Below are positions 3,198 to 30,615 of a DNA stretch of 64,000 bases, piece by piece. A program made the translations under genes and the position numbers. Position 1 is the stretch's first letter. The number at the start of each line of letters is the position of its first letter. Source of the stretch: Marsupella aquatica (lineage: Eukaryota > Plantae > Marchantiophyta); assembly GCA_973895155.1 (NCBI GenBank), contig OZ316894.1, forward strand, positions 434,001-498,000. Reading direction: 5' to 3'. Under the pieces are notes generated by a model. The model was not told the origin of the DNA and did no database searches. It saw nothing but the letters and a program-made list of their open reading frames with translations.

Positions 3198-3304
3198 TGT
3201 AGATAGGCAGTAATTCCAAAGTCATGAAGAAAACCGGAAAATTTTTAAATTTTTGAAGTAGTTAAACTATATTTGCTGATAACTCGAGTAAACTAAACCC
3301 TGCC

Positions 3305-3490
3305 GAAGATTAAGAGTTTAAGAGTTGAAGAGTTGAAGTGTTTAAGAGTTTACGGGTTTACGAGTAAACCCTACTTTAATAGTTTAAGAGTTTAAGAGTT
3401 GAAGAGTTGAAGTGTTTAATAGTTTAAGAGTTTAAAGGTTTACGAGTAAACCCTACTTTAAGACTTTACGACTTTAAGAGTTACGACTTG
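3305..3490 (+). repeat. Degenerate 9-bp tandem repeats (AAGAGTTTA/AAGAGTTGA) with a larger ~80-bp duplication
   Basis: Repeated ttaagagttt/gaagagttg; same motif recurs at ~12183-12248. Confidence 0.75.
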
Positions 3491-3685
3491 CGAACTGGCG
3501 AGCCCCGCGATTGTGACAGGCTACGGCTAACTCCAACGGGACTTTGCAACAAAACGAGGAGCAGGCCTTGAAGGGGGAGGAATCCAGAACATAGGCGCTC
3601 ACTCCTGACTTCTTTTCCGCTGCATCTTTCATCGCTCTCGACTCCAAACAATTCTTCGCGTAGCTCAGTGAGCAGAATTTGAGCT

Positions 3686-6100: not shown

Positions 6101-6281
6101 AGGAGACTATCTTTTTAGCTAGTATTGAAAAGTATAGTACTTTTACCAATTTTTCTAAATGTGTTGTAGAGCTTTAAAAGCTATGAGACTTCTTTAGGCT
6201 GTAGTCTGTACCTAGGAAACCCTACTGGAAAAATTTCAGAGTTTTCCGAACCAGGAGTAGAAAGTTAAAAATAGTTGAATC

Positions 6282-6478
6282 TGTTGTAAACCCTAGTTTA
6301 CCCCTTAACCATAGGGCGAGAACCCTTAACCATAGTATGAGAACTCCTAACCATAGGACCAGTATAAGGGCATTTGCCTACCATGTAACCAAGGGGATAT
6401 ATATATCCCCTCATCAATAGTAATGGATCTATCTTGTTGGAGTATCTTTGAGTGTTCCTTTAGTTGTCTATTACAACA
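6282..6478 (+). repeat. 5' LTR of copia
   Basis: TGTTGTAA...TTACAACA; matches 11957-12153. Confidence 0.95.
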
Positions 6479-6492
6479 CGTTATCAGCACGA
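6479..6492 (+). promoter_or_regulatory. Primer binding site complementary to the anticodon arm of tRNA-Ile (half-molecule priming)
   Basis: CGTTATCAGCACGA directly after the LTR; complementary to UCGUGCU-IAU-AACG; this PBS type is described for the Bianca lineage. Confidence 0.75.
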
Positions 6493-6837
6493 GCCAGTCT
6501 CTAAAAATCATTTTTTTTCAAGCAGATGCAATCGAGTTTTACACGAGGAGAATGCTCGTAAAGTGGCATTTTTTTTAGAAACTGCCATAACCGTTTTTTT
6601 TCTTGGTCTCCATTCTTTTGCCTCAGAGTTGAATTTTTTTTACAAAACACGAAATTTCACATAGAGCATCAATTCGGGACCAGCATATCGAGAGTCCAAA
6701 GGACTAATACTTTATTGGCATGATTGAAAGCTCCCTCAGCTCCATATACAAGCTTCCAACCGGTCAATTGTACAATCGAGATACTTCACTCGATTCAATC
6801 TTCACCAAAGTTCTTAAACCAACTGACATCCCGAATA

Positions 6838-9800
6838 ATGAATACAGTCGAAAAATTATTATGGCCAGCACTTAAAGTCGACGGATCCAACTATTTGACG
6901 TGGATCACAGATGTCGAAACTTACTTTACATCACAAGACCTTGAAGACACCTTAGATATCGACATCGATGTCACGCTCAAACAAAAGGCTAAGGCAGCGT
7001 TTCTACTCAGGCAACATCTAACCCCTCAACTAAAGAATGAGTATATGAACGAAATTAATCCAAGAAAACTATGGGATCTCCTCAAAGCCCGATTTGATCA
7101 TATGAGGGAGATATGGCTCCCAGAGGCAAGAAGGGATTGGCATAACCTGCGCGTCATGGACCACACCACAATTGCCAATTACAATAGCGCACTGTGCAGA
7201 ATTACATCTCAATTAGAAATGTGTGGACATCCAATAAATGACATAGATAGAATCGATAAGACACTATCGACATTCCCTGAATCTAATATCACATTAGGTA
7301 CACAATATAGGAACATGCGTTTCACTAAGTACTCAGATCTGATTGCTCACTTACTTGTGGAAGAGAAGCAACAGATCGTGGCCTTGCAAAACGCCAGAAA
7401 GCGCCCAGCAGGATCAGACCCCCCACCACATCGACCTGAAACCCACTACACCAATTATGAAGACAAACAACGAGGAAATTACCGGGGCGGACGAACTCAA
7501 TTCAGAGGCGGAAGAAACCAATTCAGGGGCGGGAGAAATCAATTCAGAGGACAAGGCAAACCTTATAACCGACCCTCCGGATCCAATAACACGTGGCGCA
7601 GAGGCACCATGAATAATAGAGGAAGAGGACGAAGCAACCAATACGACACTGCAAACAATTCCCAGAAAATGTGTTACCGATGTGGCAAAATTGGCCACAT
7701 TAGAAACGCATGTGCAGCCACAGCACAAGAGGCCCACAGATACATAAACGACAGAAATAAGTCCAGACAAAACCCCCAAGGACATTATATGGAGATAGAA
7801 GAAGAATTGATTGCCTCTCAGAGAGAAGAAACACAAGAACAGATAGAAGTACATACCTCTCTTACTGACTGGAAATACCCGACATTAGACGACCCCGATA
7901 CGGGCATCATCGACAGCGGAACCTCACATACTATCTTAAAACACAGCAAGTATTTCGAGGCCATCACCCCATCATCCCGCGCTATCACCACCATAGCAGG
8001 ACTTAATCATATAGAAGAAGGCAAAGGACGAGCCACATTTATACTACCAGGAGGAACTAAAATCACCGTGAAGTCAGCAATTTATGCCCCGAAAGCAACC
8101 CGAAACCTCATCAGCTTCCAGGATATCAGATCCAATAACCTCCAACTGCGCACGAATACTCAGGGCAAAACAGAGACATTACAGATCATACAAGACATAC
8201 AGGGTAAGCCATCCATTAGAGAAACATTTGCATTGATCCCCCCAGGCCTATACGCAACCAGTATCCAAACATTCCATATACACCAAGAATCAGAGGATAT
8301 GACATACATCTGGCACTGTCGACTGGGCCACCCGGGTACCACTATGTACAACAGGATTATAAGGGACTCCAAAGGAATCCCCAAGACAGTCAAGCCAAAG
8401 GTAAAAACAGCCTGCATAGCGTGCTCACAAGGAAAAATGACCATACGACCATCAATACCAAAAACAATATTTTCAATACCACAGTTCCTAGAGCAGATCA
8501 ATGCAGATATCTGCGGACCTATAGACCCCCCGAGCGGCCCTTTCAAATATTTCCTGGTAATCATCGACTCATCAACTAAATGGCTGCAGATTTCATTGCT
8601 ATCTACCCGCAACTTGGCATTTGCGCGGATCTTAGCACATATTCTTAAATTAAGAGCACAGTTCCCAGAGTATCCTACAAGAAGATTAAGAGTAGATGGA
8701 GCTGGCGAGTTCACATCAAGAACATTCGACGACTTTTGCTGGGCAGCGGGCATCGATACTCAATATCCAGTTCCCCACGTTCATTTTCAGAACGGTATAG
8801 CTGAGTCGGTTATTAAGAGACTTCAAATGGTGGCAAGACCACTGTTAATGAAGTCAAACTTACCCACATCAGCATGGGGACATGCCATCCTTCACGCAGC
8901 TGCACTAATCCAATATAGACCGTCAGCATATAACTCTAAGACACCATACCACCTGGCGTTCGGCATACCACCGGACCTGTCCCACCTACGCATTTTCGGA
9001 TGCCAGGTAATGGTGCCTACCTTAGGACCAAAGAGAACAAAACTCGGACCCCAACGGAATGCAGGTATCTATGTTGGGTTTGACTCTACTTCGATCATTA
9101 GATACCTTGAACCGACTACGGCAGACCTGTTCAAGGCAAGACATCAGGACTGCCATTTTTATGAAGATCAATTCCCACAGCTCACGAATACAGCATCAAC
9201 ACAATCCAAGGACACAACGAAAATGCCCATAAATTGGAAAGCAGACCAAAACAGAAATGACCCCAGAACCAAGCAGGCAGACGAAGAAGTCAGAAGACTT
9301 CTCCACCTACATGAAATGCTCGAAAAGATTCCAGACTCATTTAACGACGCTGCAAATGTCACAAGATCCCACAACTTAGCAGCTAATGCGCCATCGCGAG
9401 TACAAACCTCCTCGACACCGGCCAATGTAACAGCCCCCAGAGCAAAGCGAGGCAGACCACCAGGGATCAAGGACTCCCAGCCTCGCCAACATAACACTCC
9501 AGCAGCAAACTTGGGTACACCCGCGCTGGAACCAGCGATCACACTTAACGTGACAGCGATAAATCAAAACGACCCACTGAGCGAAGAAAACGAGGAAATG
9601 TCAATCACATACATGCAAACAGGTAACATATATAAACGACCGACAACCCAAATTGATGAACAATTTGCCTATAACGTAATACAGGAAATCACCAACGATA
9701 TTCCTGATCCGCTCACTATAAACGAGGCAAAGAAACAACCAGATTGGCCAAAGTGGCAAGCAGCAATACATACCGAGATGGACGCCCTCATCAAGCGACA

Positions 9801-11448
9801 AGTATTCGGACCATTTAAAATGGCATTACCAGGTACACATTACACCGACTCTCGATTTACATTCTTGAAAAAACGAAATGAGAAAGGCATAGTAGTAAGA
9901 TATCGAGCCCGGCTAGTAGCCAAAGGCTACACACAAATCCCGGGCAGGGACTACGATTTAACATACTCACCAGTAATGGACGCTACTACATATCGCTATC
10001 TCACAGCACATTCAGTCCACCATAAACTGGTTAATAACCTTATGGACGTGGTAACCGCGTACCTTTACGGCACACTCGATACTGAGATATACATGACTGC
10101 CCCCCCGGAACTGATAGAGAGGGTCAAGCAGCACATTCAGGGGGAGACGTCCCAGAACCTGAATACAGAGATTAAAAAGGGCATCAGCCAAATAATACCT
10201 GATGGGGATACAAAGGCCCTCTTGATGCAAAGTGGAAATACACAGGCAATGCATACCAGAGGAAAGAAATTAACAACAAAACTTACAGTCCAAGTGTTAC
10301 GTTCCATCAACGGACTTAAACAGAGCGGCAGAATCTGGTATCAGAAATTCCAGACAGAGATGCTCGCCCTCGGATTTACAAATAGCGGACTGGCCCCCTG
10401 CATCTTCATCAAAAAGCATATGGACGAAGTCCTGATACTAGCACTGTACGTGGACGATGTGAACTTATTCGGGACTAAACAGATGATGAAAGACACAATA
10501 CATACACTGAAAGGAGTCTTCGAGATGAAGGACCTTGGAAGACCCAACCACTGCCTAGGCCTGCAGATCGAACACTTAGAAACAGGCATATTCCTTTACC
10601 AATCGACATACACGCAGAAGATACTTCATCAATTCAACATGCAGAAATCCTACCCTGTCTCCACCCCGATGGAACTCAGATCTCTAGACCCGATCAAAGA
10701 TATGTTTCGGAAGCGCCAAGAAGACGAACCCATACTGGGATCAGAAAAACCGTACCTATCAGCGGTGGGCGCCCTTATGTATCTAGCGAACCAGACGAGA
10801 CCTGACATATCGTTCGCCGTCAGTCTCTTAGCGAGACACAGCGCACAGCCCACCATCAGGCATTGGAACGGCATCAAGAGGATCATGAGATACCTACAAG
10901 GGACGATCGACCTTGGACTATTCTTTCCTAAGAATAGCCCCGATACGCTTACCGGTTACACTGATGCCGGCTACCTGTCGGACCCCCAGGACTCCAAATC
11001 ACAGACTGGGTACGTGTTCTTACAGGGGACGACAGCAATATCTTGGCGAAGTTCAAAGCAAACGATGACCACAACGTCATCCAACCACTCGGAAATCATA
11101 GCGTTATACGAGGCGTGCAGAGAAGCTGTATGGCTACGAAGCATTATCAATCATATTAGGTCCAGCACCGGTAAACCACAGATAACAGAGCCAACCACAA
11201 TCTACGAAGACAATAAGGCGTGTATCGACCAGATAACCAACGGAATCCTGAAGACCGAGAGGACCAAGCATATTGACCCCAAGTATTTCTTCACGCAAGA
11301 ACAACAAGGGAAAAGTATCAATGTTGCATGGATCAAATCTCAGGACAATCGAGCAGACATGTTTACGAAACCACTACCAGCCGGATTGCACAGAGCGCAC
11401 CTCGAAGGTATAGGCATGAGCAGATTGTCCACGATCAAGCCCACCTAA
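6838..11448 (+). CDS. gag-pol: Copia Gag-Pol polyprotein (gag, CCHC, PR, IN, RT, RNase H), single intact frame
   Basis: CYRCGKIGHIRNAC, IDSGTSHT, WHCRLGH...CIAC, ADICGP/RVDGAGEF/NGIAE, RLVAKGY, YVDD, YTDAG; first ATG at 6838. Confidence 0.95.
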   Translation: MNTVEKLLWPALKVDGSNYLTWITDVETYFTSQDLEDTLDIDIDVTLKQKAKAAFLLRQHLTPQLKNEYMNEINPRKLWDLLKARFDHMREIWLPEARRDWHNLRVMDHTTIANYNSALCRITSQLEMCGHPINDIDRIDKTLSTFPESNITLGTQYRNMRFTKYSDLIAHLLVEEKQQIVALQNARKRPAGSDPPPHRPETHYTNYEDKQRGNYRGGRTQFRGGRNQFRGGRNQFRGQGKPYNRPSGSNNTWRRGTMNNRGRGRSNQYDTANNSQKMCYRCGKIGHIRNACAATAQEAHRYINDRNKSRQNPQGHYMEIEEELIASQREETQEQIEVHTSLTDWKYPTLDDPDTGIIDSGTSHTILKHSKYFEAITPSSRAITTIAGLNHIEEGKGRATFILPGGTKITVKSAIYAPKATRNLISFQDIRSNNLQLRTNTQGKTETLQIIQDIQGKPSIRETFALIPPGLYATSIQTFHIHQESEDMTYIWHCRLGHPGTTMYNRIIRDSKGIPKTVKPKVKTACIACSQGKMTIRPSIPKTIFSIPQFLEQINADICGPIDPPSGPFKYFLVIIDSSTKWLQISLLSTRNLAFARILAHILKLRAQFPEYPTRRLRVDGAGEFTSRTFDDFCWAAGIDTQYPVPHVHFQNGIAESVIKRLQMVARPLLMKSNLPTSAWGHAILHAAALIQYRPSAYNSKTPYHLAFGIPPDLSHLRIFGCQVMVPTLGPKRTKLGPQRNAGIYVGFDSTSIIRYLEPTTADLFKARHQDCHFYEDQFPQLTNTASTQSKDTTKMPINWKADQNRNDPRTKQADEEVRRLLHLHEMLEKIPDSFNDAANVTRSHNLAANAPSRVQTSSTPANVTAPRAKRGRPPGIKDSQPRQHNTPAANLGTPALEPAITLNVTAINQNDPLSEENEEMSITYMQTGNIYKRPTTQIDEQFAYNVIQEITNDIPDPLTINEAKKQPDWPKWQAAIHTEMDALIKRQVFGPFKMALPGTHYTDSRFTFLKKRNEKGIVVRYRARLVAKGYTQIPGRDYDLTYSPVMDATTYRYLTAHSVHHKLVNNLMDVVTAYLYGTLDTEIYMTAPPELIERVKQHIQGETSQNLNTEIKKGISQIIPDGDTKALLMQSGNTQAMHTRGKKLTTKLTVQVLRSINGLKQSGRIWYQKFQTEMLALGFTNSGLAPCIFIKKHMDEVLILALYVDDVNLFGTKQMMKDTIHTLKGVFEMKDLGRPNHCLGLQIEHLETGIFLYQSTYTQKILHQFNMQKSYPVSTPMELRSLDPIKDMFRKRQEDEPILGSEKPYLSAVGALMYLANQTRPDISFAVSLLARHSAQPTIRHWNGIKRIMRYLQGTIDLGLFFPKNSPDTLTGYTDAGYLSDPQDSKSQTGYVFLQGTTAISWRSSKQTMTTTSSNHSEIIALYEACREAVWLRSIINHIRSSTGKPQITEPTTIYEDNKACIDQITNGILKTERTKHIDPKYFFTQEQQGKSINVAWIKSQDNRADMFTKPLPAGLHRAHLEGIGMSRLSTIKPT

Positions 11449-11956
11449 TAACACTGAAGCTCGAAAGGATTACCCAACGACGAAGCTGTCGCCCGATGAA
11501 GCCGCCTCCAGATGCCCGACCACCACACTCGGCGAGCGCCACACCACATCCCCGACGTGAAACAACGCAAACCAACGCAAAAACGCCCGACTTGGCCTCA
11601 CTAACCCAAAGCACAACACGAAGCGAAGCGCAATACGCAAAACGACATGAAGAACAACACGAGGCGCACACCAGGCAACGAGCTGAGGGGGAGACTAGAC
11701 ACCCATTAGGAACATTCACATAACCCCACTTAGCACATACGATCAACACTAACTAAGACATGGCAAAAAAGGCTTAACCAGGACATTAGATATGGGAAAC
11801 CACCTATATAAGTGATGGTAGCACTCTTTCCTCGAGAAGAAAGCGGCGAGGTTTTAATGAGGCTACATCACACAGGTGGACCCCTAAACCGGATTATACC
11901 CTAGGTTCAAGAGATGTGGTTACTTTATGCTCCTCCATAAACTAACCAAGGGGGAG

Positions 11957-12153
11957 TGTTGTAAACCCTAGTTTACCCCTTAACCATAGGGCGAGAACCC
12001 TTAACCATAGTATGAGAACTCCTAACCATAGGACCAGTATAAGGGCATTTGCCTACCATGTAACCAAGGGGATATATATATCCCCTCATCAATAGTAATG
12101 GATCTATCTTGTTGGAGTATCTTTGAGTGTTCCTTTAGTTGTCTATTACAACA
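11957..12153 (+). repeat. 3' LTR of copia
   Basis: Matches 6282-6478; preceded by PPT, followed by TSD. Confidence 0.95.
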
Positions 12154-13156
12154 GAATCTACTCAATTTTTAGTATACTGAAATTAAGAGTTTAAGAGTTT
12201 AAGTTTTTACGTTTTTAAGAGTTTAAGTTTTTAAGAGTTTAAGAGTTCATACTTAGCCATTTTTTCCGGCTTTCCACTTATTGAATCGTCGTTTTGACTT
12301 TTTGAGGGTTATGAAGAGGCATGTATCTTCGACCCTGTGACCTCTTATTCTGTAGTTCATCACTATTTATACCTCTTCCCCTAGTGTAGAGAGATGGTTA
12401 AGTTCTGCATTTTTGCCTCCCTTTTGTTAAGTCTATTGATTCTGAACCTACGAGTTCTAAATCAGACTTAATAATTGGAGAGACTTACCTCCTTCTTGTA
12501 TTTTGGAACCCAAATACTTGAAGTAAAACCTCAGTTATGAATCTCGTGAATTATAATGTCAGATTCCGCTTTGGTGACACATTATAATCTCACAAGTTCT
12601 TAGAGTTAACTCATTGAGTTTAAGTTACATTGGAAATGATGTTTTCACCTTCATGTTGCTTAGTACCATCTAAATGCTGAAGTATTTATCCTTTTAGATC
12701 TTGACTAAGTATCACTTAGGAAGAAAGGTCAAGACATGTTGCCGGCATTTTAAAAGGATACTCTAGTATGCAGTTTAGATCTGAAAAGCCGTGTGGATTT
12801 GAATTTCCTTAAAGTCATTCCATTATTACTTATGTCTAAGGAGTAACCTTGGTCTATTCCAGACTCCCTTAAGCATACTCTGAGAGATTTTTCCTTGTGT
12901 TTTGTTAATTGCAATCTTTTGCTTAATTGAAGGTTATCTGATGTTGAGTTATCATCAAAAACTACTCACCGCTGTGGAGCGATCTTCAAAGTACCTGATT
13001 AAAGTAATCAAGATTGATTACTATGTGTGACACAAGAGCTTAAAGCTTTGTTTTTAGTTTGTTACATCAAACCAACCCCATCTTGTTCTTAAAGGGAACG
13101 AATACCGAGTTTGGAGACTTTAAAATGTGATTTTTGGTTCTCTATGGCAAACTACA

Positions 13157-14984
13157 AGTCACAGCGGTGGTAGAATTGAAGCAGATGTTAGTAGAGGCCC
13201 CAGTCATGATAGCACCGGACTGGAACAAAGATTTTCATGTTTTTGTAGATGTCTCGGGCTTCTGTATTGGCTCAGTACTAAGTCAGTTGGATGAAAAAGG
13301 AAGGGACCATCCCATATACTTCGCAAGCCGTCAGCTTGCCGATGCCGAACGGAACTACTCTACCACAGAAAGAGAAGCATTAGGAGTCATTTATTCTTGT
13401 AAAAAGTTTAAGCATTATTTACTAGGGTACAAGGTAATCTTTCATACCGATCATGAAAGTTTGAAGTACCTAGTCAATAAGCCGGACCTTACAGGCAGAG
13501 TAGCAAGATGGATTTTGCTATTACAGGAGTTTGACTATGAGCTGAGAATCAAGCCGGGAAAGTTACATGCCAATGCCGACTTCTTTTCAAGGATCACAGG
13601 TAAACCTGCCACGGATTGCATCGATGATCGATTCCCCGACGAGGAGCTATTCGTTGTGGAAATAGCTGGTACATGGTACCCTGAGATTTTACAATTTCTC
13701 AGCACTTCCAGATTACAGCCAGGATTAAGCCGAGAGCAAGCCGCAGTCTTTGTGCGGAAGGTCAGACAGTATCAGTGCATTAAAGGCATACTGCACAAGC
13801 ATGGAATCAACGGCACGATTCAAAGATGTTTGGAAAAGAGAGAGGTAAAACGAGTCCTACGGGCCATGCATGGAGAGGAGGCCGGAGGACATTTTGCCCC
13901 AGTAACCACGTCTAAGAAGATATTAAATGCCGGTTACTGGTGGCCCACCTTGCACAAAGATGTCTATCAGTTTATCAAACAATGCGATCCTTGTCAACGA
14001 GCGGGAGGACCAAGGGCGTCCACCAGGCATCCACTGCACCCTATTCTACCTCTGGCACCATTTGAGAAGTGGGGTATTGATTACATTGGACCTCTGAAAC
14101 CACTGACCCACCCTCGACGGAACAAGTACATAATCCTGGCTACAGATTATGCAACTAAATGGGTAGAGGCCAGACCAACAATGAAGGATGATGCAATTAC
14201 TACGGCTAGATTCATGTATGAGCAGATCTTCACCAGGTATGGAGCACCCCTAGAATTAGTTAGTGATAGAGGAACCCATTTTTTGAATGATATAATTAGT
14301 CGTTTAAATGAGCAGTATTTAGTTAAACATAGGCCTACTACTCCCTACCATCCAAAGGCAAACGGGTTGACAGAACGAGCAAACGGAATTATAGGAAAGA
14401 TATTGAACAAAACAGTAGCGCAGAACAAACTTGATTGGGACGATAAATTGTTTGCTGCTGTTTTTGCTTACAATCTTGCCTATAAATCCACTACCGGTCA
14501 TACACCCTTCTTCTTAACCTTTGGACAAGAAGCCCTGGTACCCATGCAACTTGAGATACCGACATTTCAAGTTACAATTGAGGAAAGAGCCTCAGCGGAG
14601 GAGAGCCTAAAGGAGCGAGAATATAGGTTAGAAGCTTTAGAGGAAGCGAGAATGATTTCAGCCGAGAGAGTAGAATATAGACAGAATATCATGAAGCAGC
14701 AGTATGATAAAAAGTTGAAAGTAGTTAGTATTCATACCGGTGATCTTGTGCTACTTTATGACAGTAGGTATAGTAGGTTTCCAGGAAAGCTTTACACTCG
14801 CTGGTTAGGACCCTTTAGAGTAACCATGATGTTCCCCAATGGCTCCGTACAATTGGCCAACATTACGGGAGAGGTATATCCAGTTCGCATCCATTATGAC
14901 CGCCTCAAGAAATACTATATGGACGAAGATGAAGTTGTTCGCGAGGACGCTTCACAATTAAGTGGGGAGCTATGTGATGCCTAG
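13157..14984 (+). CDS. pol: Pol part 2 of A1: RNase H and integrase
   Basis: YSTTEREAL, HTDH; H...H...CDPC zinc finger; GIDY, SDRG, LTERAN triad; WLGPF; stop codon falls inside the LTR. Confidence 0.92.
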
Positions 14985-17900
14985 ACAGGAATCACTCGGC
15001 CGGTTAAGTGGGTAAAGCAGGAAGGCACCCTAGGAACACCTTAGTATAGGGACAAAACAAGGAAAATATAAACCATTAGGGGCAACCATGGAACCCGGGC
15101 CGAGGCCGGAGGTAAGGATGCTGAGGGTGAAAACTCGATTAGGGTTAGGGCGCGTTAAGCGTCGGCGGCTAGGAAGGATCAACGGGAAGAAGGACCGGCA
15201 GAGGAGAGGGGTAAGGAGCGCTTGCAGGAGATGGTGGCTCATTTGCAAGCACGAACTAGGCAGACGACTACGGGAGGCCAACTACTGTCAGCTGCTTAGG
15301 CAAGCACTCGGGGAGAGAGTAGATACCGACGATCGACCTAAGGAGGGTATGAGCAACGTCAATCAAGCGGCACATTTCTGGGGATGCCTGTTCGAACGGG
15401 CAACTGAGTACATCAAGACTTACGAGGACGAGGAATCAGAAAGGGCAGCTCGAGAACGGCAGGAGCTCGCTCGATTGTGGGAGCTGCAGAAGACGGCTTT
15501 CTTAGGAGGCGAACTCATCAAGGACGAGTTCCTGTGGACGCCTACTTCCAATCAACTCGACGATCTTCTGTTTTGCAAAGACAGCGTCGTCGGCATCCGA
15601 GAGGCCATCAAGAACTGCAACGACATACACTGGGAATTAAAGGGTAGCACGGAAAGGTGGACCCAGGCAACGGTGCTAGGAGAAACCTCCACAGCAGCAG
15701 AGATGAAGAGGAAGGGAGCCGTCAACGATGAAGCCACCCCGGCAAAAAGAACGAGGTCGGCGGCACCAAAGAAGCCAGCCGAGCAGCAGAGCAGGAGGCA
15801 GGGAGAAGCCGAAGAGGAGGAGGTCGATCCCATCAAGGCCATTCCAACCAGGGATGACACCTGGAAGGGCTGGGCGGCAACCCTACCGGTGGAGGTGCAA
15901 CTACATTTTGCACGGGAGGAGGATGCATGCTTTACGGCCATGCAGACCAAGAAGTACCAAGGCTTCATGGCCGGATCTGGCTTAGAGGCCTTTGTAAGAT
16001 TACCATGGCTGAAGCCGGAGGTACCGGAGTCAGACCTATTAGAATTCGTGGGGTCATGGGAACCCGAGACCAATTGCACGAGGATATATGGGAAGGATTT
16101 CTATCTTACTCCCAAGGTAATTGCCGAAGTGTTTGGCTTGCCGATAGGCAATAAGACCAAAGTTGATACCAGGAAGACCTTGCCTGACAAGGAGTTCCGG
16201 TCGTTCCCCGGGCCATCAACGAAGAATGGCTTCTTCCGGAACACCTGCACCAACCCGCACATAGGAGAGATGATCGACTTCTTGCGGGTGACCATGCATT
16301 GTAACTTGCCGAGGGCAGAGATCGGCAAGGCACAGGTCTATCTGGCAGAAAGGCCAGACCCAAGCCGGGACTACAACGGGTACCTCCTCAACCAATTGAA
16401 GAAGATCTTAAAGGAGGAGCAACAGGTAATCGGCATGGGGAGCGTGTCGCGGCTTGGCTATCACATGCCGCTGTTGTGCCGGTATGCCAGAGGTCAGACT
16501 TTTGCCCCGGTACTTCCCCTGCAGGTAAGGGCACCCGAGGAAGCTCCAACGCCGAGGCCGTTGGCTGAGAAGCCTCAACCACCTGTTAGCCCTACGATCG
16601 AGCAGGTGTTTAGGCCCAGGAAGGAGGACTTGCCGATGCAGCAACCAGGCATGCAGAGTCTGCTGAAACTACTGGAGAACGAAAAGAAATTGGCATCGGC
16701 AACAACAACGGCAACGGCAACAATGCACGACACTACTACAGAGGTAGGCCTACACCGGCTCACAAGAGAAAACCCCTTTGCTGGAGACAAGGAGAGAATC
16801 AGGCCGGAATCCAAGCCCGGTGTTCGAATGTATGTGGGAATCTCAAGCTCCGAATCTGAGGCAGAATTGCCTGAAGCTCCTACCGACGAAGAGGAGAGGG
16901 AGAAGCCGGACGGCCAAGAAGTAGAGGAGGCAGTGGAGGACTGCAGCCATGATAATTCCGGCTATGGGTCGGACCATCACGTCCCAGGAGTAAGGACCTG
17001 TGGCCGGTTTGTCCCCACACTTCCAAGGGTAGTGCGAGGGGACCCCAACCAGCAGAGTAGCCCTGAGTCTCCCCCACCAGATGTTGCTCCCCCGAGCTTC
17101 GACGGCATAAAATAGACGGTGCAGGAATTTCAGGAGCGAATCAAGCACGAGGAGGAGGCAGCCCTGGCTAAGGAAAAGGATTTACCAGGAGAAGATTGGC
17201 CGGAGGACATCAGGCGGCTAGCCAAAAAAGGAAGCAAACCTCTAGCCACGATTGAAGAGATCCGCAGGACGGCTTGGGAGCAGAGGCCGCGATGGGCGAT
17301 GCCGATCACTTCTACTTACTCCACCTACGCTAAGAATAGAGCCATGGAGTATGGTGAGATGTGTGGGGAACTTGCGCTCGGCATCTTTGGAGAGGAGTTG
17401 GAGGTAGGACCCTTTTTCCATAGGGAGCAGTTGGAGAAGCACCAATTAGAAGAAGCGGTGGCTTTAGAGAGAAGCAAGAAGGACGAGGTCATTCGGCGGC
17501 TTAGGAGGATGGAAGCCGAGATTGAAGATCTAAGGGCGGCCAAGAAAGCCCAAGATGAACTGCAGATTAAACGACATGAGCTGAACATCATGCAGGGGCA
17601 GTTGGACACCGCGCAGGCTGATAATCAGAATATCAAGGATAAACTGACTCAGACGCAGGGAGAGTTGGCCGACACGATCAAAGAGAGGGAGAAGTGGAAG
17701 CAAGAGCTGAAGAATACAGAGGAGGCCCACATAACAGCCAACAGCCGGGCCATGGCGGAGACCCAAAGAAAGGAATGGGCGTTGAAAGGGGAGCTCGAGA
17801 AAATCCGTGGAGCCCTTGAGCAGAAGGAGGCCGAGTTAGGGAAATCCTATCAAGGGATTATGGCGCTGCAGCAGGAGCTTGCGTCCCTGACGGCCAGCTT

Positions 17901-19632
17901 CAAGGCCGACCTAAGGGAGAAGGACGAGATGCTCGAACAGACTTACGCCAAGATGAACCAGATGGAGTCTGTCATCATTGCAGAGCTCGACAAGGAGCTA
18001 AAAGCAACCCAGGAGGAGAGGACTACCTTGAAACAAGAGCGGGAGGAAGCCCAGAAGGAACTAGAGGAGGCACGCAAGGACCTGGATGAGACCCAGGAGG
18101 AGTTGGAGGAAATCACGAGGAAGATGGAGAACCTCCAGCGGCGGGCCGACAACCAAACGGAGCGGCTGAAGAAACAAGCCGCAGTATTTAAGTGCTTGTC
18201 TTCATCAGGCCCAACTCCAATTGGGGCAACCAAGTTACCAGGAGTGGTACTGGCCGAAAAAGCCGCGCCACCTGCACCAGTGCCGGAAGTAAGTGGGAAG
18301 GGGAAGGGACCAGCTGCCGAACCAGAAAAGAAGAAGAAGCGGAAACCTTCAGGGTCAAAGAGTAATCCGACTCCACAAGCCGTGGTGACCAAAGAGGTAG
18401 AACCAGCACCATCCTCCGACATGAATACGGCAATAGATCCCGCTATGATCACAGGTGGGGGTGGTGCGGCCCAAGCCGAACTACTCAGTAAGGAGGCCGG
18501 TATTCCAGATCCGCCTCTTGAGCAGGCCGGGGAGACCGTAGCCGAGGCTGAGGCCGTAACCGATTCCCGAGCCGATGCCGACGCTGATGGTGGACCCAGT
18601 CAGGCCGATGGAGAGTTGACTCAGTCAAGGGCAGGTAATCTGTCAGGGAATGAGCCTACGGCAGTGGCTGAGGAGGAAGCGTTGGGGGCGTCCATTAAGG
18701 ATCCACCACCGGTGTCGTGACGGTGCAAGGGCGCCGTTCCTTTTAGGGAGGGCGGACGTGGAGGGAGGAGGCGTGAGTGGGCAGGGCGGGCGCGGATCTC
18801 CACGTTTAGGATTAGGATCAGAACCAGGAGCGGCCCTGACACTTAGCTTAGTGGGATTGCGGTCCCACTGGTAGGAGCAACACTTGTGCTCCTGCCTTGC
18901 TGTACATAGGTAGATTCAGGCAAGTAGATTACTGTTAAGTAGATTAGGCTTACGATGCAAAGAATGGCGGATCCACTACCAGGATAAGTACCTGGGCAGC
19001 GGGGAGCTCAGGGCCTCTTCTTTAGCAAGTTTTTAGTTTGCACCAGCCGGGCTGGGATCAAGTAGTACGAGAAGCTCTCGGTTAGTCATACAGTGACCCT
19101 TGTGTATATTCATGTTTCCTCATGCCTAAGAGCTGAATAGAGTTGGCCTCACGGCTTAGTTCGCAGAACTTGTGTATGAGATGTACTGTTTGTATGGCAA
19201 GTGCATGGTATGACTCAGTCAGAATGAGTCATTTTGCTATTTGTGTGTCGCATTAACTTGTGTGAAGAGTGCCCACATCAACCAAAAGGAAGGAAAGTAA
19301 GCAGGGGAGTGAGAGTTGGATGTGTCGAGCTGAGAGAGGTCTTAGCGGCTTAACCAAGCCTATTGGGGATCATTCCGGCGGCGGAATCCAAACATACCTA
19401 ACAAGATGGAGGGGAAGACAGGGGAAGGCCTAGATTAGGCCGGCTACGTATCTCATGACCCGATGAAGGATCTGTCCAGTATATGTGTGTAAAATGTTAA
19501 TAGTAGTAGTAGAAGGTTAGCAGCGTCCCATGCCGCTAAGCCGCGGAAACGGCCTCGCCAAGCGCGAAACCCGCGGGAATCGGCTTGAGCTGGGGGGTTT
19601 CTTGGGTTTAGGGAGCCATGGGACGCACCACA
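14973..19632 (+). repeat. Giant (~4.66-kb) 3' LTR of gypsy A1 containing an accessory ORF
   Basis: Starts TGTGATGC just after the PPT; ends GCACCACA (7/8 inverted match); the same start is a clean integration junction at 25502 and follows the PPT again at 36209. Confidence 0.8.
15088..18720 (+). CDS. LTR-encoded accessory protein (~1210 codons, one in-frame TAG at 17113-17115): accessory domain, long coiled coil, basic NLS-like motif
   Basis: ORFs 15088-17115 and 17119-18720 are in the same frame; conserved in copies at 23618-25392 (-) and 36314-37657; E/K/Q/L-rich heptads; KKKKRK. Confidence 0.75.
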
Positions 19633-20007
19633 CTGCTCTGCTGTGACGCCGCTGGTATGGCGGGTAATGAATAATTCGGTCTAACCGCGCTTAGCACGCG
19701 CGTTAGGGGTATCTTAGGCAATTATTATTAGCATACGACAATATTTAAGTAGCCATTATGAGTAGGAAATCATTAGGCAATAAGGAGAGTCCGTGTTCGG
19801 GCTGGCGGCGGGTCGCCATTCGCACGCCCGGGTTGCGAGCGTGTAATGGGCCCCATTTTCCCCTCCCTCGGATCCGTATAACAAACTCCGGAAGGTGGTC
19901 ACTGACACGAGCTGACCCGGACCGGCGAAGTGGTCGGTACACTGCGAGCATGAAAGGCTCGGCCTATAAGCGACGAGGAGGAGTCGGGCGACCGACAAGC
20001 TCTCAGG

Positions 20008-20015
20008 GTATAAAA
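20008..20015 (+). promoter_or_regulatory. Candidate TATA box ~105 bp upstream of the B ORF
   Basis: TATAAAAA; conserved in B2 (TTTTATA at ~35603-35609, minus strand). Confidence 0.5.
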
Positions 20016-20114
20016 AGGGGGCTGATCCTTTGCAGTGCACCAGTTCTTCAGACCATGCGCCAGCTTTGACCCCAGCTCGCTCGTTCATCCTTAGTCACCT
20101 GCTATCTCCTCTAA

Positions 20115-22740
20115 ATGTTGCACACGATCCTTTCTAGTTCGGCTATACGATTCTGGACACAGTTCTTGTCTATCGGAGGGCACTTGGCCGACTCATTGAA
20201 ACATGCCAACCCGCGCTGATACAAGATCGAACGCGAATACGAGAGGGCCATCCGCCTAGCAGGCCGCCACCACTATCTCCTTAACTTTGATTACCCGTCC
20301 CAGAGCGAGCTCTACCGACCCGAAGAAATCTCGGGGTACTTCTTCAACTGGGGCAAATACATTGGATTCTGGAAAGCATTACTTTGGCTTCCAGACGCGG
20401 TCTTCTCTATCCCGGGCATGATCGATTTACAGTGGCACCACTTTGACCACATCCCCGCTCGGGTCCAGGCCATCATTAACAGCAAGTTTAGCATGACCCG
20501 GTCGACAAGACCGTCTACACTTGCTTTGGAAGATCTCTACCGGCACCTGCAGCACTTCATGGGAACCAGACCATCAACCAACGGTGCCGACTCAGCCGAG
20601 CCCGGGCCTGTGCCCGTGCCTGCACCTACACCTACACCTCCTTGATCTCAACCAAGCCGGTCCCACCACCGGTCCCACCCCCTCTCCGAGTATGGTCCGT
20701 GGTGAACGCGGTGAACATTAGTTCCAAAGATGAGGAGGCTCACCCTCCTTTGAATCGACGGCCATGGGGTACGACTCAACAAACGCCAAACACCCCAGCA
20801 CCACTCGAGCAAGCCTGAGGGGATAACGCGGTAACTCTAGTGGCCTCGACACCAATACTCACGGCAGTCGCGCTACCACCACCTGACCGGGAAGAAGGAG
20901 AGATGTCCCCCTCTTCTAGTCACCTCGGGAATCAGTCTCGGGGTAGGAAGAGGAAGGAACCCGGATCCGTATCCGGGTTGCCGTTTGCCACGGTTGCGGT
21001 AGCCAAGCTGACCATGCATCGCATGGGGGACAACATTCATAAGAACATCCTCCACCCCAAGCATGCATGTTATCTGAAGACCCAAGGGTTTGAGCACCTC
21101 GCCTCTCTCCCTTGGAACGTAAGCAGGTACTACGGACAGGATATGACGGAGTTCATTCAGAAATTTGACGAGGCCCGTCAACAAACCCGAGCGCACGGGA
21201 GAGTGATGTGTCTCAATGAGGCACGTCTGAAGATGATTTTTGGCTTACCCGAGGGGATAAACCAAGTTGAATCACGGGCTCCTGGAGGCAAGGGAGCTAA
21301 ATACCAGTCCTCTAGCTTCTTGGCCGAGGGGGTAGTGGACAATGGGTTCTTAATGAGGACGTGCCTCATCCCGGAGGTAGCAAAATGCTTGGAGTTCCAG
21401 CATTATGCCCTCCATATGATGGAACCCAAAGGCAAAATATTGGCCGCCCAGGTCATCCAGGTGGAGAATTATCGGCCCAGGAAGTGGGCGTCCTACTTCG
21501 TCAAGAAGTTCCACAAGGAGATGGAGCGGAGGAGAAAGACTTTGAACCTTGGCGGCAGGGCATACTTTGCTAGCCACATCAAAATAATCATCGAGTGGTA
21601 CGCTCGTTTAGACCGCCGCAGCCTCCCGCGTAGCAACGAGCCCGAGCTGACCCCGTCAAGATGGGTGTTCCCAGCCCAGGTGAGGTGACCGCAGCCCGAG
21701 GCCCAAAGTCTGGCAGCTGCAAGCCCTACTACCCCGACCCCGCAACCCGCCGTTGCTGCCCCGCCAAGCACACCCATAGATGTCATCGCAACCTTAGACG
21801 CAATCAATCGGGGCAATACAATTGAAGCCGGGCCGGATGAAGCCATACCCGAAGCAGAGGCCACGGTAGCCGAGGGGATTCAGTCACCCCCCACGGGTGT
21901 ACCGGAGAACCACCCAACTCTAGTGGAACCAGCCCCTTTGACCAACTTACCTCAAGGGCTGGATGTATCCACTCCTACACCCCACGGGTTGGAGTCTGCC
22001 CGTGCCCGAATCCAGATGGACACAGTCTAGACCATCCGGAACTCTTTGCGCCGGGCATGTTTCTAAACGGGTTGTTGGGAGATTTCTCTCAACAGATCTC
22101 TCGGGATACCGGGGAATACATGGCCCGGAGGGTGGCCTACTTCTTCAACCAGGAGTTGGTTGCGGTTGTAAGGGCGGGACATGCGCAGGCAGAAATGGCG
22201 CAGAGAATAGAGTGATATCGGGTTGAGTCTGCCTACCTGAAGGACAAAGTGGCAACCCTGGAGGCTGAACTCCAGCAGCTGCGGCCTCAGGTAACGGCCA
22301 CGGAGGACCAGGTTGCCGAGGCTAGGGCCCAGGCAGTTTTAGCAATACAGGCCGGGCTCGGGAAGGACGCCAAGATCACGCGGCTCCGGACCAAGATTGA
22401 CGGTTTGAAGGGACAAGCTGTCAGGTGGCAGAAGGATTTGGAAGAAGCTGACTCCAGGTCTCAACGGGACACAGCCAAGATTGACACCCTGAAGGCAGAG
22501 GTGGCGCGGCTTCAAGAAGAAGCCATGAAACAGGCCCAGTTGGAGGACAAGCTGACGAGCAACACCCAACAATTGGAGGAGGCATGTTAGGAGGCCGCGG
22601 AAGAGGCAAACACGGCGAAGCAGGAGAACAAATCTCTGCTGGACCAGGTCCAGCTACTTAAGCAGGACGCCGACAGGCTCATAAGGCAGCGGGATAGCCG
22701 CTCCCACTTGGGCGGTTCTGGCAAGCGTGCCAGGCATTAG
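20115..22740 (+). pseudogene. Decayed ~870-codon accessory ORF of B1 (several nonsense codons)
   Basis: MLHTILSS...GFEHLASLPW...MIFGLP...coiled coil...GKRARH; colinear with the B2 ORF. Confidence 0.75.
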
Positions 22741-23617
22741 GGGCGGGGTAGGATTATGATAGAGTTAGGATATTGAGACAAGCACCTGCCCTAGTTAAAG
22801 CAGTACTGCCATGCCAGCCAGCCTGCGTAAATTAGGATCTTCTAATAAGACAAGCCGTCTTCCGGCCTGACAGTCAGCTTAGATTAGGACCTTAGATTAG
22901 CGAATCTTCGGGTGCGAGGGCACTCCGCCCTTACTATTTAGTGCACCCCTCGATAGAGGCAAGGGGGGGTGTTTTTAGTCTCAGAGTTGGGCATCCGCGC
23001 TATGTGCGGGGAGTCCCAACCTCTGGGAGTGAAAGAGTACCAAGGGGAGGGGGTAGGACTAAGCTCGTTGGGCAAGTGCGGAGCCAGGCTTCGTTGTAGT
23101 GTACTCCCTCGGCCTTGGACCTGTTCATTCCAGAGCTGTCGGGTCAGCCAAGTGTACGCGTATGTCCCCTATGTAGTAAAATCCTTTCCATTCATTTCCT
23201 TCGTGTAAATTGAGATTGTATGCTTATGCGTGTGTATATGTGTGCGCATCTCGTGTATAGGTGCCAATGTCGGGCCGAATGCACTACCCAAGTCGTGCAC
23301 GGGGTGCAGCCTGTGGGTAAGTGGTTGCAAGCACGGGTTGAGTACCCGTATCATCAAATCCGGATCGAAGGCGGACAACACGAAGGCTTAGAAGCCTTAA
23401 GCTGGGGTCAATCCTGCTATCGTCTAAGGTACATTCCGGCGGCGGAACACAAACCATACCTAGGAGGTGTCCGTATTTAACAGTAGGCGCACTTAGCGCT
23501 AGTTTACGTGAATTAGGTGCATTCCGTGCTTCCCTCCCTGCCCGAACCCTCATATTTACGAAGGATGTGCCTGTCTAAGCTGAAGCCCGAATTAAGGTCA
23601 AGGCTAACAACGTGACA

Positions 23618-25502
23618 TCTGCCTCGGATTCGGGGCTGCAGGCTCCCACATACATTCGAACTCCCGGCTCATGTTCTGGCCTCCTTCTCTCCTTGGCTCC
23701 GGTAAAGGGGTTTTCCCTCCTGAGTTGGCTTAGGCCAACTTCTGGGGCAGTGTCCTGTACCGGTGGCGTTGCCGTTGCCGGTCTCTTCTCCTTCTCCAGC
23801 AATTTCAGCAGATTCTGCATGCCTGGTTGCTGCATCGGCAAGTCTTCTTTCCTTGGCCGAAACACTTGCTCGATCGTAGGACTGGCGGGCTGGTTGGGCT
23901 TCTCTGCTACCGGCCTCTGTTCTGGAACTTCCTCGGGTGCCCTTGCCTATAGGGGAAGTACTGGGGCAAAGATCTGACTTCGGGCATATCAGCACAATAG
24001 CGGCATGTGATAGCCAAGCCGCAACATGCTTCCCATGCCAATCACCTGCTGCTCCTCCTTCAAGATTTTCTTCAGTTGGTTGAGGAGGTACCCGTTGTAG
24101 TCCCGACTTGGGTCTGGCCTTTCTGCCAGGTAGACCTATGCCTTGCCGATCTCTGCCCTCGGCAAGTTGCAATGCATGGTCACCCGCAAGAAATCGATCA
24201 TCTTTCCGATGTGCGGGTTGGTGCAGGTGTTTTGGGAAGAAGCCATTCTTCGTTGATGGCCCTGGGAACAACCGGAACTCCTTGTTAGGCAAGGTCTTCC
24301 TGGTATCTACTTTGGTCTTATTGCCCATCGGCAAGCCAAACACTTCGGCAATCACCCGGGGAGTGAGATAGAAATCCTTCCCATACACCCTTGTGGAATT
24401 GGTCTCGGGCTCCCATGATCCCACAAATTCTAATGAGTCTGAATCTGGCACCTCCGGCTTCAACCATGGTAATTTTACAAAGGCTTCCAAGGTGGATCCG
24501 GCCATGAAGCCCTGGTACTTCTTGGTCTGCATGGCCATAAAGCATGCATCCTCCTCGCATGCAAAATATAGTTGCACTTCCTTGGGAAGGGTCGCCGCCT
24601 AGCCTTTCCAAGTGTCATCTTTTGTTGGAATGGCATTGATGGGATCGACCTCCTCCTCTTTGGCTTCTCCCTGCTTCTTGCTCCCCTGCTCCGCTGGCTT
24701 CCTGGGTGCTGCCGACCTCGTTCTTTTTGCCGGGGTGGCCTCTTCGTTGTTGTTTCCTTTCCTCTTCATCGCGGCTGCCATGGATGTTTCTCCTAGCACG
24801 GTTGCCTTCGTCCACCCCTCCGTGCTACCCTTCAACTCCCAGTGCACGTTGTTGCAGCGGTTGATGGCTTCTCGGATACCGATGATTCTGTTTTTGCAAA
24901 ACAGAAGGTCGTCGAGCTGATTGGCAATAGGAGTCCACAAGAACTCGGCCTTGATAAGTTCTCCTCCTAAGAAGGCAGACTTTTGCAGCTCCCACAGTCG
25001 AGCAAGCTCCTGCCGTTCTTGAGCTGCTCTCTCCGATTCTTTGTCCTCGAAAGTCCCAATGTGTACTCAGTTGCCCGTTCAAATAGGCATCCCCAGAAAT
25101 GAGCAGCTTGATTGACGTTGCTCATACCCTCCTTGAATTGATCGTCGGTATCTGCTCCCGCCCAGAGTGCTTGCCTAAGCAGCTGATAGTAGTTGGCCTC
25201 ACGTAGTCGTCTGCCTAGTTCGTGCTTGCAAATGAGCCACCATTCCTCGCGAGCGGTCCTTACCCCTCTCCTCCTCTGGTCTTCCCTCCCGTTGGTTACC
25301 CCTAGCCGCCGACACCTAGCGCGCCCTAACCCTAATTGTTCTCTCTCCCCCGGCGTCCTTACTTCCGGCCTCGGCCCGGGTTCCATAGTCACCCTTAATT
25401 GTTTATATTTTCCTTGTTTTTTGTTACTATACTAATGTGTTTCCAGGGTACACTCCCATTTTCCCACTTAATTGGCCTAGTGATTCCTGGCTAAGCATCA
25501 CA
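23618..25502 (-). mobile_element. Gypsy A3: antisense LTR 5' portion inserted into the RT of copy A2
   Basis: Reverse complement begins TGTGATGCTTAGCCAGGAATCAC at 25502, abutting RT sequence GTATTCCC; frameshifted copy of the 15088 ORF. Confidence 0.85.
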
Positions 25503-28500
25503 GTATTCCCTGATGGTCAAAACTGAAATCGACAAGCTAGTGGAAGCCGGATTCATCACTCCAGTCCTACACTCGGGCTGGGTATCTCCAATTGTGATAG
25601 TTCCCAAGAAAGCGGGACCCGATGGTAAACCCAGAATCCGGGTTTGTCAAGATTACAAGAAGTTAAATGAGGCTACATTGAAAGACCATTTTCCTTTACC
25701 CTTTACTGATATGGTGCTAGACATGGTAGTCAGTCATGAACTATATTCATTCATGGATGGGTACTCTGGTTATAACCAAATCAGGATTAGGCAGGAGGAC
25801 CAAATCAAGCGGCTTTCATCACGGAATGGGGGATCTATGTCTTCAATCGTATGCCGTTTGGACTCTGTAACGCACCAGCTATGTTCCAACAATTAATGGT
25901 GAACATTTTCCATGATTACTTGAGAAAGTTCATGGAAATCTTCAGTGATGACTTTGCAGTATTCAGGAAGGCATCAAAACATGCTAAATACCTAAGGAAG
26001 ACCTTCATGAGATGCAGAGAGGTAGGTCTCAAGTTACACCCAGATAAATGTTTCTTTGGAGTAACAGAGGGTGTGCTGCTAGGTCACAAGGTATCTAAGA
26101 AGGGCATTGAGATTGACAAGGGTAAGCTAGCAGTATGGCTAGATATTATGCAACCTAAGAACATAAAGGATGTGAGATCCTTCTTGGGGTGCATTGGGTA
26201 GTATCGCCGGTTCATCAAGGATTTTGCCAAGCTAGCTTTACCGTTGACCAACATGCTCAAGGCAGGTGCGGACTTCAAACCCACACTAGAAAGAGTAACA
26301 GCTGTGGTGGAATTAAAGCAAATGTTAGTGGAGGCCCCAGTCATGATAGCACCAGACTGGAACAAGGATTTTCATGTCTTCGTAGATGTCTCAGGCTTCT
26401 GTATCGGCTCAGTACTAAGTCAGTTGGATGAGAAAGGAAGGGACCATCCCAGATACTTTGCAAGCCGCCAGCTTGCCGATGCCGAACGAAACTACTCCAC
26501 CACAGAAAGAGAAGCATTAGGAGTCATTTATTCTTGTAAAAAGTTTAGGCATTATTTGCTAGGGTACAAAGTAATCTTTCATACTGATCATGAAAGTTTG
26601 AAGTACCTAGTAAATAAGCCGGACCTTACAGGCAGGGTAGCAAGATGGATTTTTCTATTACAGGAATTTGACTATGAGCTAAAAATCAAGTCGGGAAAGC
26701 TGCACGCCAATGCCGATTTCTTTTCAAGGATCACAGGTGAACCTACCACAGATTGCATCGATGACCCTGATACATGGTACCCTGAGATTTTGCAATTTCT
26801 CAGCACGACCAGATTTCAGCCAGGGCTAACCCGAGAACAAGCCGCAGTCTTTCTGCAGAAGGTTAGACAGTATCAGTGCATTAAAGGCGTGCTCCACAGG
26901 TTTGGAATCAGCGGCATGATTCAAAGGTGTTTGGAGAAGGGAGAGGTAAAACGAGTCTTACGAGCTATGCATGGAGAGGAAGCCGGAGGACATTTTTCTC
27001 CAATAACCACGTCTAAAAAGATATTAGATGCCGATTACTGGTGGCCCACCTTGCACAAAGATGTCTATCAGTTTATCAAACAATGCAATCCTTGTCAACG
27101 AGCGGGAGGACCAAGGGCGTCCACAAGACATCCTCTGCACCCTATTCTACCTCTGGCACCATTCGAGAAGTGGGGTATTGATTTCATTGGACCTCTGAAA
27201 CCATTGACCCATCCTCGGAGAAACAAGTACATAATCCTGGCCACGGATTATGCAACTAAGTGGGTGGAGGCCAGGCCGACAACGAAGGATGATGCAATTA
27301 CTACGGCTCAATTCATGTATGAGCAGATCTTCACCAGGTATGGCGCACCCCTAGAATTAGTTAGTGATAGAGGAACCCATTTTCTGAATGATATAATTAG
27401 TCGTTTAAATGAGCAGTATTTAGTTAGACATAGGCCTACTACTCCTTACCACCCAAAGGCAAATGGGTTGACAGAACAAGCCAACGGGATTATAGGAAAA
27501 ATATTAAACAAGACTGTAGCTCAGAACAAACTCGATTGGGATGATAAATTGTTTGCTGTTGTTTTTGCTTACAATTTAGCCTATAAATCCACTACCGATC
27601 ATACACCCTTTTTCTTAACCTTTGGGCAGGAAGCTCTGGTACCCCTGCAACTTGAGATACCTACATTTCAAGTTACAATTGAGGAAAGAGTCTCAGAGGA
27701 GGAAAGCCTAAAGGAGCAAGAATATAGATTAGAAGCTTTAGAAGAGGCAAGAATGATTTCAGCCGAGAGAGTAGAATATAGACAAAATACCATGAAGCAA
27801 CAGTATGATAAAAAGTTGAAACCAGTTAGTATTCATGTCACGTCGTAGGCTTCGGCCTTAACTCAGACTTCAGCTTAGACGGGCACATCCCTCGTAAATC
27901 TGAGGGTTCGGGCAGGAAGGGAAGCACGTAATGCACCTTATTCTCGTAAACTAGCGCTAAGTGCGCATACTGCTAAATACGGACACCTCCTAGGTATGGT
28001 TTGTGTTCCGCCGCCGGAACGTACCTTAGTCGATAGCAGGATCGACCCCGGCTTAAGGGCTTCTAAGCCTTCGTGCTGTCCGCCTTCGATCCGGATTCGA
28101 TGATACAGGTCCTCAACCCGTGCTCGCAACCACTTACCCGCAGGCTGCACCCTGTGCACATCTCGGGTAGTGCGTTCGGCCCGGCGCTGCCACCCATATA
28201 CGAGAAACCCACACACATATGCGCACACATGCATACAATCTCGATTTACACGAAGGAAAAATGATGGGAAAGGATTTTACTACAAAGGGAACATATGCGT
28301 ACACTTAGTTGACACGACAGCCCTGGAATGCACAGGTTCAAGGCCAAGGGTGCACACTACAACGGAGCCCGGCTCCGCACTCGCCCGGCGAGCTTAGTCC
28401 TACCCCCTCCCCTTGGTACTCTGTCATTCCCAGAGGTCGGGACTCCCCGCATGTCCCGCGGATGTCCGACTCTGAAACTAAAACCCCCCCCCTTGCCTCT

Positions 28501-30377: not shown

Positions 30378-30615
30378 AGCGAGCGGGGGGGGGGGGGAGT
30401 TAAAGGGCCTCCCGCAAGCTGGGAGGATCACGCGAGCGGGGGGGAGTTAAAGGGCCTCCCGCGAGCTGGGAGGATCACGCGAGCGGGGGGGAGTTAAAGG
30501 GCCTCCCGCGAGCTGGGAGGATCACGCGAGCGGGGGGGAGTTAAAGGGCCTCCCGCGAGCTGGGAGGATCACGCGAGCGGGGGGGAGTTGAAGGGCCTCC
30601 CGCGAGCCGGGAGGA
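30378..30615 (+). repeat. 47-bp tandem repeat, ~5 copies (preceded by a ~63-bp duplication at ~30242-30368)
   Basis: GCGAGCGGGGGGGAGTTAAAGGGCCTCCCGCGAGCTGGGAGGATCAC, period 47. Confidence 0.9.

Follow-up and report, generated by a model that had tools for sequence, protein, structure and literature searches.

Extra open reading frames (ORFs) of retrotransposons have been described upstream or downstream of gag-pol, within the internal region (PMC7264820, PMC6317226). In plant Ty3/gypsy elements other than chromoviruses, LTRs reach up to about 5 kb, and an additional RNase H domain is a feature of the Tat clade (PMC6317226). Transposase_32 has been found in an extra ORF of Athila, located in the internal region (PMC11728184), and the linkers of Athila4 and Calypso contain an extra purine tract (PMC2829016). 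The Athila, Phygy, and Tat lineages have been listed in a liverwort, and genes in LTRs go unmentioned in the available part of that report (PMC12885004). An ORF in an LTR is encountered in MMTV, where sag/naf lies in U3 and has its own promoter (PMC9412291).

A second set of relevant systems comes from proteins that act on transposon silencing. VANC, an accessory protein of transposons that oligomerises through a coiled-coil region, is a structural homolog of the plant-mobile-domain protein MAIN (PMC13547354). VANC binds family-specific motifs, which are often tandem repeats, and demethylates its own family (PMC5735166, PMC12844716). One plant-mobile-domain clade is Gypsy-encoded, and it has been speculated that copies on transposons act against silencing (PMC5418596). 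A plant LTR-resident gene of the kind considered below was not reported in the literature searched, which covered few subscription papers.

A Ty3/gypsy element with a large LTR

The window, a stretch of 64,000 nucleotides from the liverwort Marsupella aquatica, is a nest of plant retroelements. The first of these, element A1 of family A, and its 3' LTR comprise the following features.

3..1847, plus strand: gag-protease ORF of family A, still open where the window begins (zf-CCHC, E 9e-9; protease by eye)
1754..3197, plus strand: 5' part of family A pol, with reverse transcriptase (RVT_1 match), interrupted by insertion Z
13157..14984, plus strand: 3' part of family A pol, with RNase H and integrase (Pfam)
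14960..14969, plus strand: polypurine tract AAGTGGGGAG, followed by a 3-nt spacer and the LTR; layout matched in the metagenome locus L001
14973..19632, plus strand: 3' LTR of A1, 4,660 bp, TGTGATGC..GCACCACA (termini, contig depth, flanks, tail motif)
15067..15072, plus strand: TATAAA, the sole TATA consensus in the LTR and a candidate ORF promoter (motif scan)
15088..18720, plus strand: ORF, very probably LTR-resident, with the likely start at ATG 15349 (frame, dN/dS, relatives)
15877..16500, plus strand: conserved globular domain with a predicted VANC/plant-mobile-domain fold (relatives, structure models)
17440..18200, plus strand: coiled-coil-like region, approximate limits (simple heptad score)
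19073..19272, plus strand: T-/TG-rich patch, candidate 3'-end signal (inferred from composition)
19371..19400, plus strand: motif also present, and equally oriented, in the tail of family X (alignment against shuffles)
19633..19637, plus strand: CTGCT flank, predicted target duplication of A1 (its counterpart beyond the window) and part of A2 (flank reading)

The domain order of A1 pol as matched by Pfam (reverse transcriptase, RNase H, integrase) is the Ty3/gypsy arrangement. Pfam gave no second RNase H, the Tat clade feature, in A1 gag or in either part of pol at E 0.01, and no chromodomain, the chromovirus feature; A1 pol stops at 14984. The protease part of the gag ORF has no Pfam match and was read from the sequence. 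Among named relatives, the best matches to pol come from two liverworts, Calypogeia fissa (55-64% identity) and Riccia sorocarpa; matches from flowering plants are lower, at 38-39% identity. A metagenome scan with pol found two loci, and in the related locus L001 the integrase is 62% identical. At L001:880-1011 the TG follows a motif, a purine tract, and a short spacer as in A1; the AT-rich LTR start there resembles that of unit Z by eye, and the locus ends about 80 nt into the LTR.

Three further copies of family A occur in the window.

23618..25502, minus strand: A2, a second LTR copy, which resumes at 19641-19633 across unit X1
25503..37657, plus strand: A3, a second element with pol, purine tract, and an incomplete LTR (36209-37657), split by unit X2
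50801..50870, plus strand: A4, a short A-like left terminus on a Z fragment, right limit approximate

The LTR of A1 has inverted TG..CA termini, with TGTGATGC at 14973 and GCACCACA finishing at 19632. The left end recurs behind the same purine tract in A3, at 36209. In A2 (minus strand) the left end abuts pol DNA at 25502, and in A4 a fourth such end abuts unrelated DNA, the Z fragment, at 50801. The left terminus is thus preceded by the purine tract in two copies and joined to target DNA in the other two. A2 matches 14973-16865 at 85%, which is the first 1.9 kb of the unit and includes about 600 codons of the frame. These codons, lying behind a target-joined left end, provide the main proof of an ORF within the LTR.

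The right end was examined in contigs of public sequencing runs. Their cover drops to nil at 19632 in three runs, and differing flanks are joined there in at least 30 records in run X4 (agreement 0.42-0.51), at least five in X3, and at least four in X6. So many different neighbours mark 19632 as a true element end. The summed contig depth, which is no measure of copy number, is high in each of the 15 bins between 15018 and 19652, and all four runs show a fall in the bin after these; in sequencing run X1 (not the unit X1) it is 289k-685k within the LTR and then 58k, with 56k in the integrase bin. The primer binding site is not legible in the summaries of contig loose ends, which are mixtures of flanks. 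Given a true right end at 19632, A1 lies within A2, and its target duplication is expected to be CTGCT.

Taken together, these junctions make it very probable that the ORF is LTR-resident in a Ty3/gypsy element, and it follows from the definition of an LTR that the gene would be present twice per element. The first-pass annotation had placed an integrase, a polypurine tract, and an LTR from 14973 to 19632 in succession, and the junction and flank data bear this out. Its observation that the same left end is target-joined at 25502 and follows the purine tract at 36209 holds in both cases, with 50801 as an addition. Its placement of the ORF inside the LTR is upheld by the codons carried behind the target-joined left end and by the differing flanks at the right end. 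That annotation includes neither the stop within the ORF nor its probable later start, and it does not mention families X, Y, and Z or the predicted fold.

The ORF frame spans 15034 to 18720 and is split by an in-frame TAG (17113-17115) into 693 and 534 codons. This TAG is codon 676 counted from ATG 15088, so the A1 copy does not encode a single protein of 1,200 residues; of the roughly 1200-codon protein claimed initially, the long frame within the LTR stands, and its continuity in this copy does not. The A2 frame has four stops and the A3 frame has one, together with frameshifts, and copies are 11-17% diverged. As an alternative to a break specific to this copy, programmed read-through at the TAG is less likely: in the relatives P0130 and P0135, one frame includes both the domain and a weak match of coiled-coil type.

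The ORF is under purifying selection. In the part upstream of the TAG, which is the part that the family A comparisons cover, dN/dS in the ORF frame is 0.27 against A2 (580 codons) and 0.22 against A3 (443 codons), compared with 0.86-1.10 in three other frames and 0.11 in pol. The first 100 codons from ATG 15088 differ: their dN/dS relative to the two other copies is 1.13 and 0.79. In each of the five later segments that were usable it is 0.10-0.26, and in the domain region (15838-16438) 0.10-0.13. Values of 0.10-0.26 between copies indicate selection along the lineages that produced them.

The same comparison bears on the start codon. ATG 15088, 115 nt into the LTR and the start proposed in the first-pass annotation, is kept in all three copies, and the frame is open from there; constraint, however, begins near 15349, where a second ATG is likewise kept in all three. 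Database relatives align only from about residue 92 onward. Given the unconstrained first 100 codons and these matches, ATG 15349 is the likelier translation start, which would give about 1,120 codons. The ORF leader also has an out-of-frame ATG that is conserved (15231) and two GTAAG donor-like sites (15111 and 15211) kept in all three copies of family A; these may reflect splicing or an upstream ORF.

Related LTR-like units in the window

Family A is not the only one with a long ORF. Four units of three other families were delimited.

19642..23617, plus strand: X1, solo-LTR-like, 3,976 bp, duplication TCTGC, with a broken homologous ORF
27836..35967, minus strand: X2, a second X unit, duplication ATTCA, interrupted by Y
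29879..34005, plus strand: Y, TG..CA, 4,127 bp, duplication TACCA, with an unbroken 623-codon frame at 31023-32894
3198..13156, plus strand: Z, TG..CA, about 4.1 kb once the copia insert is excluded, duplication AGTCA

All four have TG..CA ends and perfect 5-bp duplications, measure 4.0-4.1 kb without inserts, and show no terminal direct repeat on self-comparison. In X, Y, and Z alike a long ORF is present, and behind it lies a tail of 0.9-1.2 kb. The ORF is broken in both X copies by stops or frameshifts, while Z has an unbroken frame of 805 codons (3683-6100) with the same domain as A (E 2.4e-8). A profile of 22 outside relatives, searched against 373 six-frame pieces, matches X2 (8e-55), X1 (9e-49), and Z (2e-8), and the Y ORF is not matched (E 2.1). 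The score of family A itself in this search is circular, because the relatives were found with the A sequence. At the level of sequence, the X and Z ORFs are shown to be homologous to the A ORF.

Judging by this homology and by the shape of the units, X, Y, and Z would be solo LTRs left by gag-pol elements. That the gene survives solo-LTR formation, as had been proposed initially, is supported by the same shape: TG..CA ends, a 5-bp duplication, and the lack of a terminal repeat. A purine tract remnant behind the ORF was seen, by pattern, in Y alone of the four families scanned.

The tails provide a further test of the right end of A. A 31-nt motif common to the A and X tails scores 47 and 43, against shuffled maxima of 36 and 39 (for the score of 47, the shuffled mean is 26.5 and the maximum 36 in 100 shuffles), while the tails in opposite orientation score just 26 and 28. 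When A, X, Y, and Z were compared, tail similarity above shuffles was confined to A and X, and the head regions had no DNA similarity above shuffles. Since the motif is held in common with X, which is bounded by target duplications, 19632 is unlikely to be the start of another element.

Signals around the ORF recur between families. In A1 the TATA at 15067 sits 21 nt upstream of ATG 15088, which is too short a distance for the usual start site. In X1 and X2 a TATA is found at nt 359-368 (nt 368 in X1), with an in-frame ATG about 110 nt further on. The T/TG-rich patch lies roughly 300-550 nt before the unit end in A, X1, and Y. The arrangement of TATA, ORF, and patch suggests that each LTR may hold one transcription unit.

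The non-coding parts contain family-specific short repeats, with 12 copies in Z and 13 in Y, while family A has a weak repeated word alone (five hexamer copies). In Z the same 8-bp tandem repeat flanks the ORF on both sides (3310-3489 and 12183-12247), and tandem repeats of 47 and 64 bp that are rich in CGCGAGC occur in Y (30241-30615).

Insertions are nested at least seven times within 1-37657: A1, as well as X1, in A2; A2 and X2 in A3; Y in X2; Z in A1; and a copia element in Z. Public contigs likewise join A and X ends into A LTRs. The Ty1/copia element (6282-12153) is complete, with 197-bp LTRs that are 100% identical, the duplication GAATC, and an unbroken frame of 1,574 codons; the identical LTRs and the intact frame indicate a very recent insertion into the Z tail. 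On the minus strand, a degraded LINE (51072-56724) with matches to DUF4283, zf-CCHC, RT, and zf-RVT adjoins terminus A4. A cluster of ORFs without Pfam matches (38880-42987) gives the impression of a decayed DNA-transposon transposase, judging by the sequence. A 513-codon ORF (45252-46793, minus strand) has a weak protein kinase match (E 0.004, below the cut-off), and an Ulp1 peptidase ORF (61510-62319, minus strand; E 5e-15) has tandem arrays of 121 bp and 40 bp near it (57940-58596 and 62730-63049).

Predicted fold of the encoded protein

Relatives of the encoded protein were sought in 1.84 billion representatives, of which 22 matched at E 0.001, and Calypogeia proteins are present in four of the ten relative clusters looked up. 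A word-indexed protein search with the first 675 codons gave no match, while a profile search retrieved two Calypogeia proteins. No Pfam family matched the A, X, and Z domains or 14 relatives at E 10, and this includes the Transposase_32 and plant mobile domain profiles. In an atlas lookup, Transposase_32 clusters appeared at 0.90 with 150 features in common, where true members typically have 170; this resemblance is a lead only. The domain has no sequence match in the PDB, and a search for viral folds gave no match at E 0.001.

AlphaFold models of the domain have a pLDDT of 84.6 (A) and 90.3 (X), and the two have most alignment rows in common. Against 48,161 chains, VANC21 ranked first for the A model (Z 8.3, 198 aligned, rmsd 3.9; next row 2.3) and for the X model (Z 7.6, 184 aligned, rmsd 4.0; next row 2.1). 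Foldseek gave TMq of 0.52 and 0.56 for VANC21, with E-values of 0.74 and 0.14 that are not significant. In all four PDB structure searches VANC21 was the top, isolated match and spanned the whole domain; identity is 7-11%, and the Z-scores of 7.6-8.3 are middling, in a range considered common.

Downstream of the domain, coiled-coil Pfam rows for the ORF are weak and below the cut-off. A KKKKRK basic cluster is found near 18330, after the coiled-coil-like region. A transmembrane helix, an env-like feature, is absent, the highest 19-residue hydropathy being 0.82. The predicted protein would consist of a VANC/plant-mobile-domain fold plus a coiled coil.

Possible role, alternative readings, and comparison with known systems

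These observations can be assembled into a mechanism. Each LTR would form a small transcription unit, with a TATA near its 5' end, the ORF, and a 3'-end signal about 400 nt before its end, and so 5', 3', and solo LTRs would all keep the gene. The protein would be a nuclear DNA-binding regulator serving its own family, most likely against silencing; a regulatory role is suggested mainly by the models. The combination of the domain, the coiled-coil-like region, and the basic cluster, together with the lack of a membrane helix, is in favour of this proposal, while the broken state of all three A copies in the window counts against it. Overall, we consider it somewhat probable that the LTR carries a conserved gene, likely with its own promoter, for a likely nuclear DNA-binding anti-silencing regulator.

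As for how the gene came to be there, an extra ORF of Athila type, at first located between pol and LTR, might have become part of the LTR once plus-strand priming shifted to a purine tract ahead of this ORF. Because such a shift would put the gene in U3, this is the location we lean towards; as the tails have no TATA consensus, a location in R is credible at a lower probability, and U5 is improbable. A bolder and rather doubtful extension is that the LTR is a self-contained counter-silencing module. Solo LTRs would then also encode a VANC-like factor beside its target motifs, and LTR-LTR deletion would not disarm the family. An R region of 4 kb might even contain the gene, and early polyadenylation within the 5' LTR would then decide whether accessory mRNA or genomic RNA is made.

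The LTR-resident gene could instead serve another nuclear step, such as activation or dampening of transcription, integration targeting, or nuclear import, in the manner of other plant-mobile-domain or Athila ORF1 proteins. The predicted fold is also that of MAIN, a silencing factor (PMC13547354, PMC5418596), the function of extra ORFs in retrotransposons is described as unknown (PMC7264820), and family A has no clear repeated target. However, the sole match to a solved structure is to VANC21 with DNA, the layout of domain plus coiled coil is VANC-like, and family-specific repeats do occur in Y and Z. Such a role is possible, and we hold it less probable than one against silencing.

That the gene is a decayed passenger, formerly useful and now just carried in LTRs, would account for the stops or frameshifts in all three A copies and both X copies of the window and for the 11-17% divergence of copies. 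Yet the dN/dS between copies, the unbroken frames of Y and Z, and the existence of relatives in another liverwort argue against such a passenger, which is improbable. Least probable is an ordinary internal extra ORF, with either a short LTR or another element starting at 19632 on the minus strand: the 5' LTR and primer binding site fall outside the window, GCACCACA, located within A2, could be taken for a minus-strand TG start, and one contig links 19632 back to 18787, but the left terminus occurs both behind the purine tract and joined to target DNA, the A/X tail motif is in the orientation of the ORF, depth has no break inside the unit, and X, Y, and Z each form a complete TG..CA unit that includes an ORF.

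Solo LTRs are usually regarded as non-coding remnants. In the preferred reading of an LTR-resident regulatory gene, the LTRs of several families contain a gene of 600-1,100 codons that is under selection, and this alters what solo-LTR formation removes. Such LTR units may also pass for host genes in annotation, given that relatives are listed as unnamed Calypogeia proteins. The predicted fold would tie the question of extra-ORF function in retrotransposons to a testable activity, sequence-specific counter-silencing. Counter-silencing by a sequence-specific factor has been described for DNA transposons (PMC5735166, PMC12844716).

Several known systems can be compared with this locus. Athila ORF1 (Transposase_32, PF20167) and the Ogre ORF (plant mobile domain, PF10536) resemble it as sense accessory ORFs downstream of pol, and the likeness to these extra ORFs extends to the Transposase_32 look-alike in the atlas and to the large LTR. 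In contrast, those ORFs are internal (PMC7264820, PMC6317226, PMC11728184), whereas that of A1 is, very probably, inside the LTR and has no Pfam match. MMTV sag/naf is alike in being an ORF inside an LTR, but MMTV is an animal retrovirus, and the protein is unrelated and has an immune function; the A1 ORF, at about 1,120 codons, takes up about 70% of a 4.7-kb LTR.

VANC21 of VANDAL21, an Arabidopsis Mutator-like DNA transposon, is the best structural match for both models. VANDAL21, however, is a DNA transposon described as dicot-specific, identity is 7-11%, and the likeness here is one of predicted fold. The family-specific repeats in the non-coding parts of Y and Z resemble VANC targets (PMC5735166). 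MAIN and MAIL1 differ in being host genes that silence, and the survey of their family covered angiosperms (PMC5418596). If the prediction is true, the VANC/plant-mobile-domain fold would be present on retroelements beyond flowering plants.
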